A stretch of 64,000 nt of DNA from Hormiphora californensis (lineage: Eukaryota > Animalia > Ctenophora), in the NCBI GenBank assembly GCA_020137815.1, contig CM035359.1:4712001-4776000 (forward strand). The letters run 5' to 3'. Under the pieces are notes generated by a model that was given only the letters and a program-made list of their open reading frames with translations, had not been told where the DNA came from and did no database searches. The position numbers and the translations under genes were made by a program. How positions within the stretch are numbered: position 1 is the first letter of the stretch; each line of letters begins with the position of its first letter. Below, piece after piece: positions 43,107-49,100 of the stretch.

Positions 43107-46100
43107 ATGGATCACGGAATGCCGGAGGAGATTATGGAGGGAGAATGGACGGAGGAGTTCGACGATGAAAAGGATTCAAATTTGTTATCGATTGAACAGT
43201 TTGAAATGGGAGAGGCTGGAGACATGGAAGAGGAGGACGAGATAGTTTATCCTGGTACGTTTTATATGATGCAGCAGTCAGCAAATCTATTGATTCGGGC
43301 AGATCATCCTCCAGACGCAGCAATCGCAAACAAACTAATAAATATGTTGATGACACACGATTATTACTTGCCTTGCCCGACCCTGTTTGATGGGTTGAAC
43401 AAAACAAGATTATGACACAGTAAATAGAGTGTTGATGTTTAATATTTTCCCTAGGTGTTGGTGAGTGCCTGTACGTACAATGGATTGAAGAGGAAGAATC
43501 TGAAGAAGCACCGGGCTGGTATTTTGGGAAAGTTGAGAGCATCGCGGATGGACTTCATTGTATTGTGTACAGTGACCAAGCTACAGAGAGGATCGATCTA
43601 ACCAAGGTATAACACTCATTTTATATGCAACAATTGATGTTTACCAAACATGATATATCTGGTATTAACCGTGTTATTCCTCTCTCCAAGGTCAACTTCG
43701 TGATTGCCAAGCAAGGTTCCCGATTCTACTCATCCACACGTCCCAAGCCATATAAAGGAAAGACAAAGAAAGCTAGCCAAGCAAAAGCCCGTAAGAATCC
43801 CTCTCATATCATCCTTAATCAATTTTAAAAGCTGAAGGAGGGTTCCCTTTTTCGTGATTTTCAATTTTTTCCCTGCCCGGGTGATGTTTTTAGCACGCAC
43901 GTGCTAAAAAGATCATTCAGGGTTTAGAAATCAGCAGATTGTGTAGTTAACTAAAATGTCCGTCCGTCCGTCCACCGTTACACATAGCAACAAAGTCTGC
44001 TCCTTCATAAATCTTTCAACTCACACTTTGTTGATGCAACAAAGGAAATGATTAACACACATTGTGGCGCGCAATTACTCACTCGTATCACTTCCTACTT
44101 TCACATGAAATCACTTTGGGTACCCTACAGCCGTACCATGACGTGGTAGCAAGTCTTCCAAGCATGGAACTACTATCACACAACAATTGCAAGTGACTGG
44201 TGTTAAGATTACTGAGGCATGAGGGTAAAGGTGAAGCGCTTGGTCACCAACTAGGGTCTCCTAAGCAACTGTCTTGGTTATCATAGCAACTGCCTTGGTT
44301 ACCATAGCAACCACCCTGGTTACCATAGCAACTAACATCGTATCAGCCAAAAATTGCTCTTAGAGTGCAAAATTCATCGGAAAATCTGAATTTGAAGCTT
44401 AGTTATCAATTTTACACTCATCTGGGGCAGGGAAACACCGCATTATGAATACATAATGCAATAATTCTTGTTGGTTACTGTCCGACAAACACCTGTACCA
44501 CCCTATTATCCCCCTCAGCACGTGTAGCTCGGAAGTCTGCCCCGCCAGTAGCATCACGACAACAACCCGCAACTGCTAGAATTGTGGAGGAGGATGAGGA
44601 TGATTTGGACGATGTTCCTGTTGCACAACGAGCTGCTCACAGTGGTAAGTGATGTTCCTGTTGCACAACGAGCTGCTCACAGTGGTAAGTGATGTTCCTG
44701 TTGCACAACGAGCTGCTCACAGTGGTAAGTGATGTTCCTGTTACACAACGAGCTGCTCACAGTGGTAAGTGATGTTCCTGTTGCACAACGAGCTGCTCAC
44801 AGTGGTAAGTATTTGAAGAGAGTTCTTTCACAATTAGTTTAGCATAATATATCAATTCACTTGGTGAGTGCAGCGCGGCTAAACGAAGCCTGGGATGTCA
44901 TCACCAATCAATTCTCACAATCCACAGAATAAGTATAACTGCTTAACTCGCTAATTGGGAGGGTGTATTTAAAACTATACACGAATCGAGTAATACAGTA
45001 ATTGTCAATTGATGTCCACACAGTGGCCTTTTGGTGGTCACTAAGAATTTGACGAAAATTTTCTTTTGCACCTATCTGGTAGCTTTTTTGACGTAGAATC
45101 AAATGCACCCCTCACTCATGCCTTGATTTTTTGAGGAAAGTGGTGTTTTTCCAAAAAGAAGGGTAACTGAAAAATTTTCGAAAAAATTTTTATGAGCTTA
45201 TCTGGTAGCTTTTTTGACGTAGAATCAAATGCACCCCTCACTCATGCCTTGATTTTTTGAGGAAAGTGGTGTTTTTTCAAAAAGAAGGGTAATTGAAAAA
45301 TTTTCGAAACAAGAATAACTGCATTATGTTCCATAATGCTATATGTTTCCCCGCCAACCTTTTTTTCCATGACCATCTAATGTGAAGGCGGGACAGAGAT
45401 TTCCGATGATTTATGAATCACTCAAACCGTATAGAACAAATCCTTGTGTTTTATTAGCACTAAATTACGTGCCACATTGCGCGGCTCACATTTCCTGAAA
45501 ACGTGGCATTGAAGTATTTGATGAAGGAGCAACACCGTTGTCCCTCGCAACTGAGCGTGTTACAGCCGGTTTTGTGACCGTGACACCTCACTAGTATGTA
45601 AAATTGTCGAATTCTAAACCCCTATGCCTTTTTGCAAAAGGCATCTGGGTGAATGCCTTCGGCATTCACCCAGGCGGGGAAAAAATGTTTATGAGCTTAT
45701 CTGGTAGCTTTTTTGACGTAGAATCAAATGCACCCCTCACTAATGCCTTGATTTTTTGAGGAAAGTGGTGTTTTTTCAAAAAGAAGGGTAATTGAAAAAT
45801 TTTCGAAAAATTTTTATGAACTTATCTGGTAGCTTTTTTGACGTAGAATCAAATGCACCCCTCACTCATGCCTTGATTTTTTGAGGAAAGTGGTGTTTTT
45901 TCAGTTTTTAGTCTTTTTAGGCTTCTTTGACAACCATATTTAAAATTTAGCTGGAGCAGGTGAAATGGGGATCCATAACAATTTAAATGTGGTTGATAGT
46001 AAGAAATCGAACAAATTTATATCTCATTCAAAATTTTTTTTTCAAACTTCATCCAGGGCGTTTTTATGGTCAAAAAACGAAGAAAACTTGATTTTTCGAC

Positions 46101-49100
46101 CATAATATACAATAGTACGCACTTGAAACCTTTTTTATCTGAAAGGCCAGACAATTTCCTATATTTTGGTCTATAAGACATCGATGAGGTTCGATGAGGA
46201 GGCTGGGGAGAAAGCGTTAAAGAAGGCGTGTTTGTTTACTTTAAAAAAACGATCTTTCAAAAGTTTGAGACCTAACTAAACACGTATTCCGACCTTATTT
46301 TACATGTAGAATCGATTGCCGATAGAATTGGGACTCTAATATTGAAGGATAACGGTGAAAATCACATGTTGTTAGACCATGAATTTTGTTAAGCTTGGAT
46401 TATCCGATGGGTAGACACTAGACATGTTCCTGCAAAAAGGAATTATACATTTTAACGCCTTGGAGAGGTTGGTGATGTTCATAGACGGCTGAATAAAACT
46501 CGCTTCATAACGATAAAATGTGGAAATGAGTTAATAAACAGAAGGATTGAAAACAGAGCTCTCAGCAGAAGAAGGACTTTACCAGGGTGTCCATGTGATT
46601 CATGGGTCCTGTTCTGTTGTTACATTGTCCTTTAGAGTGCCCGGGTGTATGGCACAACTGACATTTCACCCCTACAGATAGCCGGTGTTCTGTCAATTCG
46701 GGGTCACCGATAATGAACAGCCTTCTTATGGTGTCTTTGAGGTTGTCCGTTTGCGAGGTTTTTCTAGCGAGGCGTGACCTGTAAACAAACACGCCTTCTT
46801 TAACGCTTTCTCCCCAGCCTCCTCATCGAACCTCATCGATGTCTTATAGACCAAAATATAGGAAATTGTCTGGCCTTTCAGATAAAAAAGGTTTCAAGTG
46901 CGTACTATTGTATATTATGGTCGAAAAATCAAGTTTTCTTCATTTTTTGACCATAAAAACGCCCTGGATGAAGTTTGAAAAAAAATTTTGAATGAGATAT
47001 AAATTTGTTCGATTTCTTACTATCAACCACATTTAAATTGTTATGGATCCCCATTTCACCTGCTCCAGCTAAATTTTAAATATGGTTGTCAAAGAAGCCT
47101 AAAAAGACTAAAAACTGAAAAAACACCACTTTCCTCAAAAAATCAAGGCATGAGTGAGGGGTGCATTTGATTCTACGTCAAAAAAGCTACCAGATAAGCT
47201 CATAAAAATTTTTTCGAAAATTTTTCAATTACCCTTCTTTTTGAAAAAACACCACTTTCCTCAAAAAATCAAGGCATGAGTGAGGGGTGCATTTGATTCT
47301 ACGTCAAAAAAGCTACCAGATAAGCTCATAAAAATTTTTTCGAAAATTTTTCAATTACCCTTCTTTTTGGAAAAACACCACTTTCCTCAAAAAATCAAGG
47401 CATGAGTGAGGGGTGCATTTGATTCTACGTCAAAAAAGCTACCAGATAGGTTCAAAAAAATATTTTCCTTAATGACCACCTACTCCCATGAAAAAGGCCA
47501 CTGTGGTCCAGACCTATGTGATGTGACCTATAATAATAGATTGTCTAAACACTATCTAGTGATCCTCTCATTATTTTCAGCAAGTCACCACATTAGTGTC
47601 TAATACATTTTCCCCTCAGCAGGTCACCACAACCAGCCCCAGGGTATAGTCCAGAAGGTGCTCAGAGAAATGGATAGAGAGGAGCAACAGATGGGTTAGT
47701 AGAGTACTGAGAATTTGATAAAGTTGCTTTCCTTTTTTAAAGGAAAAAAGTCCGTGACTGCTGCGTGAAAGTGATCACATGTACAACTTGTACATATTGT
47801 ATTGTACAGTACATGTAACTTTTTATCATAGCGCTGGCAAGCGCCCGGGGCCCAATCCTCCCTCCCCCCAACCATCCTTCCCTTAAAAATGTCCATTTTC
47901 CAAGCATTCTTGCTTCCATTGAATGGAAAATCGAAATTGCGAAAAAAAATCTTTTGAATTTTTTGAAAATTTTGACAGCGCTACTATACTTATTGTCTGA
48001 AATCGGCGATTTCAACTTAGTTTTAGACAACCTTCTCGTTGTCCTACGAACATGCCGCTTGGTAGTTCGTGTTGCCTTGACACCTAGAGCACACGTTTAA
48101 AATTTCATGCAAATCGGAGTTACGGTTTTTGCGCTACAGATGGTCGTATTTTAGACAAAATGTCCGTTTTTAGCGTGACGAACCACCGTAAAGTAACGAC
48201 TTTTTTGCGTACACGATGGAGGTCACAGTTTTAAAGCTATCATCATGAAACTTTGGGAGTCGGTAGGTTTAGTGGTGTACCTCGTATTAAAGCTTGGACA
48301 GAGAAAACGGACAGTCATAACAAAAGTTATGACTGTCTTAAGCCTTCCCGTCGTTCTACGAACACGCCGCTTGGTACGTTGTGTTGCCTTGACATCTCAA
48401 ACACACGTTCAAAATTTCAAGCAAATCCGACTTACGGTTCTTCAGTTACGTGCATCTGACTGTATTAAGATTTAAGACGATTTTCAAAAAAACCTAGAAA
48501 AGAGCAAATTAAACTTTAAATCATGATTTTATCACATATATTTTGCCAACGTAGGTCAACTGCTGTATTTTCAGATATAATTGGAAGTCATATCTAGATT
48601 TATGATTGTCTTAAATTTAAGACGATTTTAAAAATGCCTAGAAAGAAGCGTTTCAGAGTCTAGATTAACATTGAATCAGATTTATTTTATAAAATAAGGT
48701 TTACTGCCGCATTTTCAGTTATAATGGGTAGTCATATCTAGAGTTATGACTGTCTTAAATATAAGACGATTTGAAAAAACCGAGAAAAGAGCGAATTAGC
48801 ATCTAGAACCTGATTGTATCAGATATATTTGATTATCAATGCTTATCCTTGATCGTTATCAGTAACTAATAATCAAAATCAGAGAATAATCGTGGAGAAC
48901 CAATCACGGATAACTAATAAATAATAGTAATCGCGGATAACTACTTAACCACGACAACTCATCGCGAATGAGTAATATGATAGTTACCAATCGCGGATAG
49001 CTAATCGCAAATATAGCTAATCGCGATAGCTAATCGCGATAGCTAATCGCGATAATTAATCGCAGATAACTTATAACGGATTCGTGATCAGTTATCCGCG

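Follow-up and report, generated by a model that had tools for sequence, protein, structure and literature searches.

What kind of transposon lies between the two copies of GTCCA in this 64,000-nucleotide stretch of contig CM035359.1 (the window), and does it belong with Transib or with the RAG1L transposons? A first-pass annotation had described it as a recently mobilised, non-autonomous member of a Transib/RAG1L family, with V(D)J-type heptamer ends and inverted arms, in a probable ctenophore host. We find that it is very probably an internally deleted non-autonomous Transib, which retains both ends, themselves unequal, and the final 73 codons of a transposase bearing a Cx2Cx3GHx4C tail (likely of Subgroup I), is flanked by a target-site duplication (TSD) 5 bp in length, and lies in a predicted intron of a likely ctenophore gene. 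This reading draws directly on the ends, the TSD, the 11-bp asymmetry between the ends, the homology to transposases and the end junctions of other copies, all of which were observed.

Table 1. Features of the very probable Transib derivative and its surroundings, in window coordinates (TIR, terminal inverted repeat).
Feature	Position	Strand	Basis or contents
Non-autonomous Transib derivative, whole, 2,487 bp (assignment very probable)	45019..47505	-	orientation from transposase remnant
5-bp TSD GTCCA, left copy	45014..45018	+	sequence
5-bp TSD GTCCA, right copy	47506..47510	+	sequence; junction spanned by a contig of run X1
5′ TIR, long form	47451..47505	-	alignment of both ends
3′ TIR, short form	45019..45070	+	alignment of both ends
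5′ (right) arm, inverted copy of left arm	46781..47450	-	2.7 tandem 126-bp units (47450-47116) and 335 bp of non-repeated sequence
3′ (left) arm	45071..46239	+	about 3.7 126-bp units (45071-45903, with the nested element inside) and 336 bp of non-repeated sequence
73-codon remnant, C-terminus of Transib transposase	46565..46783	-	six-frame translation, HMMER homology; stop at 46564-46562
Non-coding 3′ region, stop codon to arm	46240..46561	-	likely 3′ untranslated region or subterminal DNA of the parent
Nested HINE/DINE-1-like (non-autonomous Helentron-like) element, ends approximate	45310..45686	-	sequence, fold and depth; class inferred
Predicted host exon, upstream	44519..44644	+	splice motifs, open frame
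Predicted last host exon	47620..47699	+	AG acceptor, open frame; synonymous substitutions

Both termini begin with the same exact 14 bp, CACAGTGGCCTTTT, at 45019 on the plus strand and at 47505 on the minus strand. The CACAGTG previously noted at the two ends was thus confirmed, with the identity extending to all 14 bp. The first eight bases are CACAGTGG, giving the CAC-initiated, heptamer-like TIRs that characterise Transib, and the perfect GTCCA duplication held at both junctions. It constitutes a TSD of the length characteristic of Transib, seen at a single copy, and the longest direct repeat flanking the element is 5 bp. The TSDs of Chapaev and CACTA (CMC) elements are 2–4 bp in length, a range that the duplication at this one paired copy exceeds.

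CACAGTG by itself is common, occurring at 14 sites in the window, which also contains 3,868 pairs of exact inverted 14-mers within 10 kb of each other, mostly microsatellites. A direct repeat of at least 5 bp flanked only three of the pairs listed: the Transib element (5 bp), the 110-bp element at 3522-3632 (6 bp) and a tandem of palindromic sequence (20761-20833). The 64-kb window contained no further copy of the Transib element.

The two ends are bipartite and unequal. At the 5′ (right) end the terminal block (47505-47492) is followed by an 11-bp spacer (47491-47481) and then by the inner block GGTGGTCATTAAG (47480-47468); at the 3′ (left) end the terminal block (45019-45032) is followed directly by the inner block GGTGGTCACTAAG (45033-45045). 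The 14-bp block therefore runs straight into GGTGGTCAYTAAG on the left, whereas 11 additional bases lie in between on the right. The inner CATTAAG block starts at position 32 of the 5′ end and at position 21 of the 3′ end, and the outermost 52–55 bp of the two ends diverge past position 14. Asymmetric TIRs, here with the longer spacer at the 5′ end, define Subgroup I of Transib together with a CTT1 tail; Subgroup I is the proposed source of RAG1L and the proposed intermediate between Transib and RAG1 (PMC9435367).

The core of about 540 bp (46240-46780) was found to hold a remnant of a transposase gene. The remnant is stop-free, lacks a start codon and is truncated on its 5′ side at the arm junction (46783). 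It begins approximately 8 residues past the catalytic Glu and comprises the helix after this residue, an L...DP motif (RLFIIGDP), a Cx2Cx3GHx4C tail, which is the CTT1 tail of Subgroup I, and SFFC followed by the stop codon. The α11–α12 region of ZnB is deleted from this copy.

A HMMER search with the remnant against 1.84 billion protein representatives (E<=1e-3) gave 37 matches. For 31 of them the alignment starts at the first residues of the remnant and follows it along, in most cases at the C-terminus of the matched protein. The best of these 31 had an E-value of 2.2e-7 and 53% identity, and 26 contained Cx2Cx3GHx4C. The homology takes in SFF at the terminus as well as the 35 residues ahead of the knuckle; the stop codon falls where Transib proteins end. 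Pfam RAG1 was matched by 15 of the 37 at E<=0.01, five of them above the curated cut-off. A full-length match, P0121, aligned with HzTransib (6pqn) at 7e-23 and with the ProtoRAG RAG1L (6b40) at 2e-14, and a profile of 14 sequences including the remnant matched HzTransib at 2e-48, RAG1L at 3e-33 and vertebrate RAG1 at about 1e-22. Homology to the RAG1 core, as in Transib, was thus established through the 31 aligned matches, whose full-length members match 6pqn and 6b40.

A further protein search yielded 13 proteins, including platypus RAG1 and one from Bolinopsis microptera that is 42% identical to the remnant. The remnant is 41–46% identical over its length to P0163, P0164 and P0168 (41% over 73 amino acids to P0168), and the C-termini of P0168 and P0123 read, by eye, as those printed for MleTransib_3931 and MleTransib_2823 in the accessible part of PMC9435367. 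The remnant alone gave no match to RAG1 among these further proteins, and in a word-indexed protein search none of seven candidates scored. Transib transposases of CTT1 type form several clades among ENA, JGI and Logan proteins (P0107-P0140, P0163-P0173); the group is therefore broader than the few named examples.

The arms described in the first-pass annotation, and the core of about 540 bp between them, were recovered at the same coordinates, but the arms are neither equal nor simple and the core is not empty. Including the ends, the left arm (45019-46239) is 1,221 bp long and the right arm (46781-47505) 725 bp, because the left arm contains the nested element of about 375 bp and one extra 126-bp unit. 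The sequence common to both arms is identical at 238 of 239 and 431 of 433 positions (one gap). The outermost units, L1 and R1, share a variant that the inner units lack, which indicates that the arms were copied in register. No A[AT]TAAA signal was found in 46240..46561. Weak Pfam matches in the arms (Tlde1, LRR_5 and MAPEG) were discarded, being below cut-off and arising from the tandem repeats.

We favour a history in which the 5′ arm was rebuilt from the 3′ arm. Most of the transposase gene would have been lost, leaving a native 5′ end of about 55 bp fused to a copy, in inverted orientation, of the 3′ subterminal arm. The copying would probably have proceeded by template-switch or gap-repair, with the junction at a shared TAC that is also a conserved aromatic codon. 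The number of 126-bp units would also have changed, and the HINE-like element would have entered the left arm. A different history for the same family, in which the long arms were native to a long-TIR, foldback-like parent and a single deletion ran from the 5′ arm into the open reading frame, is possible but less likely. It would explain why arm sequences occur in both organisms in which the element was seen (organisms A and B, below), the register of the units between the arms (the L1/R1 variant) agrees with it, and a deletion from inside a long 5′ TIR would likewise end the inverted repeat at the junction. On the other side, the similarity between the ends of PbaTransib_0868 ceases, by eye, after a few dozen bases as printed in PMC9435367, and the terminal 52–55 bp differ while the arms behind them are more than 99% identical, which fits recent copying and hence the rebuilt arm.

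Neither history bears on whether the parent was a Transib or a true RAGL transposon of the ProtoRAG type, with RAG1L and RAG2L. CAC ends, a 5-bp TSD, asymmetric TIRs and Cx2Cx3GHx4C are all common to RAGL in the accessible parts of PMC7204232 and PMC10629977, and with most of the element deleted RAG2L could have been lost, but a RAGL parent is highly improbable. In alignments of solved structures the motif after the catalytic Glu reads L..SDP in HzTransib and HWLYTS in RAG1L (6b40) and platypus RAG1, its value as a Transib/RAG1 marker being a reading drawn from these alignments. The remnant reads RLFIIGDP, as the Transib type does, and not HWLYTS as in 6b40 and vertebrate RAG1, and the RAG1-type motifs GNE.GNK or HWL.TS were present in none of the 37 HMMER matches. 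Only 322 bp separate the stop codon from the arm. A search for a Kelch/PHD (RAG2L) gene, as the first-pass annotation had suggested, gave no family match in any of the six frames of the present copy, including the interval between the stop codon and the 3′ TIR. The remnant had no match to 6b40 at E<=10, and published ctenophore elements are classed as Transib (PMC9435367). The first-pass assignment to Transib/RAG1L is thus upheld for Transib, through coding homology beyond the end motifs, and not for RAG1L/ProtoRAG. We class the element as a non-autonomous Transib of CTT1 type, likely of Subgroup I.

A quick IQ-TREE tree with RAG1 as its root comprised 37 rows of our choosing, drawn from 19 of the 31 HMMER matches or cluster members, 11 proteins of the further search, RAG1 and five of 12 metagenome loci. 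The remnant, which fills 13% of the columns, was placed beside P0107 in a group of 17 rows that includes the ctenophore proteins (unstarred, SH-aLRT 87), and three tail-less rows, one of them HzTransib-like (L010), were separate from it.

It is very unlikely that the ends are those of another superfamily (Chapaev/CMC, or a Tc1-like element with a 5-bp TSD) and the coding piece a captured gag zinc knuckle or unrelated Transib: the Cys/His spacing is that of a retroviral knuckle and the first PDB and Atlas matches are knuckles, but the homology extends over the 35 residues that precede it and over SFF at the terminus, the stop lies as in Transib proteins, and the ends, TSD length, spacer polarity and CATTAAG independently match ctenophore Transibs as printed.

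If the element is a Transib derivative, its movement would depend on a full-length transposase encoded elsewhere in the genome and acting in trans, by analogy with HzTransib, ProtoRAG and RAG. The protein would bind the CACAGTG heptamer and the adjacent block, perhaps through its CTT1 tail, as the C-terminal Cys/His tail of BbeRAG1L binds DNA (PMC7204232 and PMC10629977, accessible parts). Cleavage would then be expected to proceed by nicking and hairpin formation at the heptamer, and insertion with a 5-bp stagger, as in the same three systems.

Part of the window was present in 16 of the 18 runs listed. These represent organism A (two samples with shares of 0.41–0.60), organism B (two with about 0.10) and, at small shares, five marine metagenomes. 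In organism B the arms are covered and so is part of the core, the latter with about 90% identity. One X1 contig (47478-47640, no differences) bridges the junction between the element and its right flank. Among the loose ends listed (22 of 26), at least three further flanks start at 47506, one of them in X5 and two in X1; several flanks at one exact terminus indicate a family with several insertions and an exact end. The other flanks, each single-sided, begin with ATGAG, GTGTG and GGCTC; taken with GTCCA, 12 of 20 bases are G/C, compared with about 41% in the window.

Sample S2 (runs X5 and X6) has no cover at 47512-47592. A joint in this sample links the 40-bp tandem repeat left of the element to 47604, with a skip of 2,804 bp that removes the element together with about 220 and 98 bp of flank. 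The short side of this joint is 29 letters and was flagged weak; the same loose end was seen in X6. The skip begins at one of the 40-bp units bearing CACAGTGG, and its right breakpoint falls 98 bp beyond the element. S2 therefore represents presence/absence variation and not a clean empty site, and both imprecise excision and an unrelated deletion fit. Two stretches of the core (46553-46696 and 46667-46783) are nevertheless present in S2 and show no differences, indicating a like copy elsewhere. One S2 core contig stops at 46783, where the arm meets the open reading frame, which hints weakly at a longer copy. At 46361 the core is left by many contigs, and in X5 a joint connects this position with 46807; shorter derivatives that lack the remnant therefore exist.

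The near-identity of the arms had been taken as a sign of recent mobilisation. Arm identity was rejected as an insertion clock, since copying between the arms accounts for it and gives no insertion date. The claim is borne out in part and indirectly, by the three other end junctions and by the absence of this copy from the second sample. The suggested check of the empty site had a similarly divided outcome: a sample without the copy was found, but with the 2.8-kb skip in place of a clean single GTCCA.

Contig collections were searched for the autonomous parent. A scan with the TIR pattern gave no matches in metagenome_contigs or viral_contigs, and its two matches in genome_contigs (L001 and L002) were dismissed as chance, being GC-rich bacterial contigs without further similarity. 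With the family profile, none of 49 stretches was confirmed in viral_contigs, and 12 of 153 were confirmed in metagenome_contigs (L003-L014). None of the 12 has DNA similarity to the element, and all were rejected as its parent. One of these metagenome contigs (L003:155-3270) contains a 751-codon open frame of a CTT1-type Transib with one CACAGTGG upstream, and is a candidate intact element of Subgroup I type.

Several observations weigh against the assignment to a CTT1-type Transib. An open stretch as long as the remnant occurred in 1,930 of 5,000 shuffles (39%), and its length was accordingly rejected as evidence for coding. The top two HMMER matches by E-value are repetitive proteins, one with ankyrin repeats and one without a family, and six of the 37 are unrelated, three being ankyrin proteins, two repetitive proteins of other kinds and one a reverse transcriptase with knuckles. 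Searched alone, the remnant matched no Transib or RAG in PDB (the best match was a retroviral nucleocapsid, E=0.027), had no RAG1 match in Pfam, and in the ESM Atlas matched nothing below 0.9 other than zinc-knuckle clusters. No starred branch of the tree contains the remnant, for which 13% of the columns are filled, and the rows include no invertebrate RAG1L, so that the tree is no test of RAG1L membership. The Subgroup I label was assigned from the text criteria of PMC9435367 (CTT1 and asymmetric TIRs). The paired TSD comes from one copy only, the three other flanks being single-sided; no joint from 45018 to 47511, as expected of a clean empty site, was present among the joints listed (15 of 27); and the autonomous parent was not found among the 12 confirmed metagenome stretches.

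A GTAAGT donor (44645) precedes the element and an AG acceptor (47619) follows it. With predicted exons on both sides, it is located in a predicted intron. In the predicted last exon all four listed organism-B substitutions are third-position and synonymous. A tandem array of five 40-bp units (44611-44810) precedes the element. In each unit the predicted exon end and the GTAAGT donor recur, together with CACAGTGG, eight bases identical to those of the transposon end 220 bp away. The host is likely a ctenophore, in agreement with the first-pass annotation. A multi-exon cathepsin L-like gene (Peptidase_C1) on the minus strand at about 55000-57060 has Mnemiopsis as the best of 12 named homologues (477 bits, the next at 287); one further protein is closer (636 bits) and another similar (482). 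Short repeat motifs in a printed Pleurobrachia scaffold recur in the window.

The insert in the left arm is inferred to be HINE/DINE-1-like. It is about 375 bp long and located in an A/T run; its subterminal inverted repeats measure 10 bp, the 5′ one adjoined by a hairpin of 13 bp, and an 8-bp stem-loop lies before the 3′ end. The accessible text of PMC4067079 gives subterminal inverted repeats, a 5′ short inverted repeat, a 3′ stem-loop and a T-rich site for HINE/DINE-1, and the insert has each of these. It resembles these non-autonomous Helentrons also in its very high depth, and differs from those described there in the 10-bp length of its subterminal repeats. Its summed contig depth in run X2 was about 3e5, compared with 2e3–3e4 in the arms, and 20 contigs leave at 45686. 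The nested element exceeded the arms in depth by a factor of about ten or more in three runs out of four and only several-fold in X8, contig depths not being copy numbers. A second, partial copy of the 3′ end of this family is present at 44426-44472, and another repeat of very high depth lies to the right of the Transib element at about 47772-47950.

Elsewhere in the window, two 890-bp copies (1099-1988 and 37805-38694) are 95% identical, are bounded by TTAA-CCC and GGG-TTAA and have different flanks; we take them to be a piggyBac-like miniature inverted-repeat transposable element (MITE). An element at 16265-17664 with 610-bp inverted arms (98% identical), TTAAGGG ends and TTAA targeting is presumably Kolobok-like. 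A palindromic MITE of about 110 bp is present in at least five copies (3522-3632, 18099-18203, 23788-23901, 39880-39990 and 49928-50020), the first of which (110 bp) has a 6-bp flanking direct repeat. At 61101-62479, a 1.4-kb element has inverted ends and is flanked by a 3-bp repeat (ATC). A C2H2 zinc-finger exon at 53645-53980 and a weak YHYH-domain exon at 18913-19329 are both on the plus strand, and 59 copies of the 15-bp unit CTGCTGCTGTCTGAG at 7382-8272 are open in several frames.

What is new here is a non-autonomous member of the CTT1-type (Subgroup I) Transibs. A family of this type, with unequal ends resembling the 12/23 arrangement, has spread as non-autonomous copies, with coding evidence for its membership, in two related marine organisms that are likely ctenophores, and it differs between individuals. 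The result is modest, and flags a genome worth searching for an intact transposase of Subgroup I. It is conceivable, although we consider it doubtful, that the family is still transposing, with an intact CTT1-type (Subgroup I) parent whose ends differ, in the manner of 12/23 signals, by exactly 11 bp and whose arms are perhaps of foldback type, 0.7–0.85 kb long with 126-bp repeats. Such a parent would provide a live RAG2-free enzyme with which to ask whether end asymmetry was enforced before RAG2 was acquired.

The range of the lineage is not extended. The first-pass annotation had suggested an extension to one of the earliest-branching animal phyla, but six Transib-like proteins have been reported from ctenophores, with the elements assigned to Transib (Tao et al. 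2022, PMC9435367), and NCBI already contains a Bolinopsis protein belonging to this group. Since loci of Mnemiopsis and Pleurobrachia with CACAGTGG ends and a 5-bp TSD are printed in the accessible part of that paper, such an extension is not new.

These ctenophore elements provide the closest comparison, again as printed there. PbaTransib_0868, MleTransib_3931 and MleTransib_2823 begin with CACAGTGG and have a 5′ spacer that is 10 bp longer by count; the present element likewise has CACAGTGG termini and bipartite ends, with a 5′ spacer longer by about one helical turn. It has in common with PbaTransib_0868 a 5-bp TSD (CTGTC in that case), with MleTransib_3931 the C-terminal tail (through the 41% identity to P0168), and with MleTransib_2823 the inner CATTAAG, which starts at 32/22 there and at 32/21 here. 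The hosts Mnemiopsis leidyi and Pleurobrachia bachei are ctenophores, as the present host likely is. Unlike the printed loci, which carry predicted transposase genes, the present element retains 73 codons and has inverted arms of 0.7–0.85 kb with 126-bp tandem units. Its terminal block is unlike the printed ones past position 8, and it therefore belongs to another family. The printed Pleurobrachia proteins lack the Cys/His tail, unlike the remnant. A literature search found no description of long-armed or foldback-like Transib derivatives, a weak negative.

HzTransib (6pqn, Subgroup II) is the best match of the family profile among solved structures and has the same L...SDP motif, but it has a CTT2 tail (PMC9435367), unlike the remnant, and the HzTransib-like row L010 groups apart. 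ProtoRAG and other RAGL elements (BbeRAG1L, 6b40) share heptamer-like ends, a 5-bp TSD, the Cx2Cx3GHx4C tail and, in some families, length asymmetry with the present element, as far as the accessible parts of PMC7204232 and PMC10629977 describe them; RAG2L and GNE.GNK...HWLYTS belong to RAGL, and neither was seen here. The non-autonomous TransibN1-N3_AG elements, in the accessible text of PMC1131882 (Kapitonov and Jurka 2005), are without transposase and have a 5-bp GC-rich TSD and unequal 5′ and 3′ TIRs resembling recombination signal sequences. The same source gives such a TSD and such ends for Transib in general. The present element is like them in being non-autonomous, in its 5-bp TSD and in its unequal ends of this kind, and unlike these elements of an insect host it retains a coding remnant that links it to the CTT1-bearing group.

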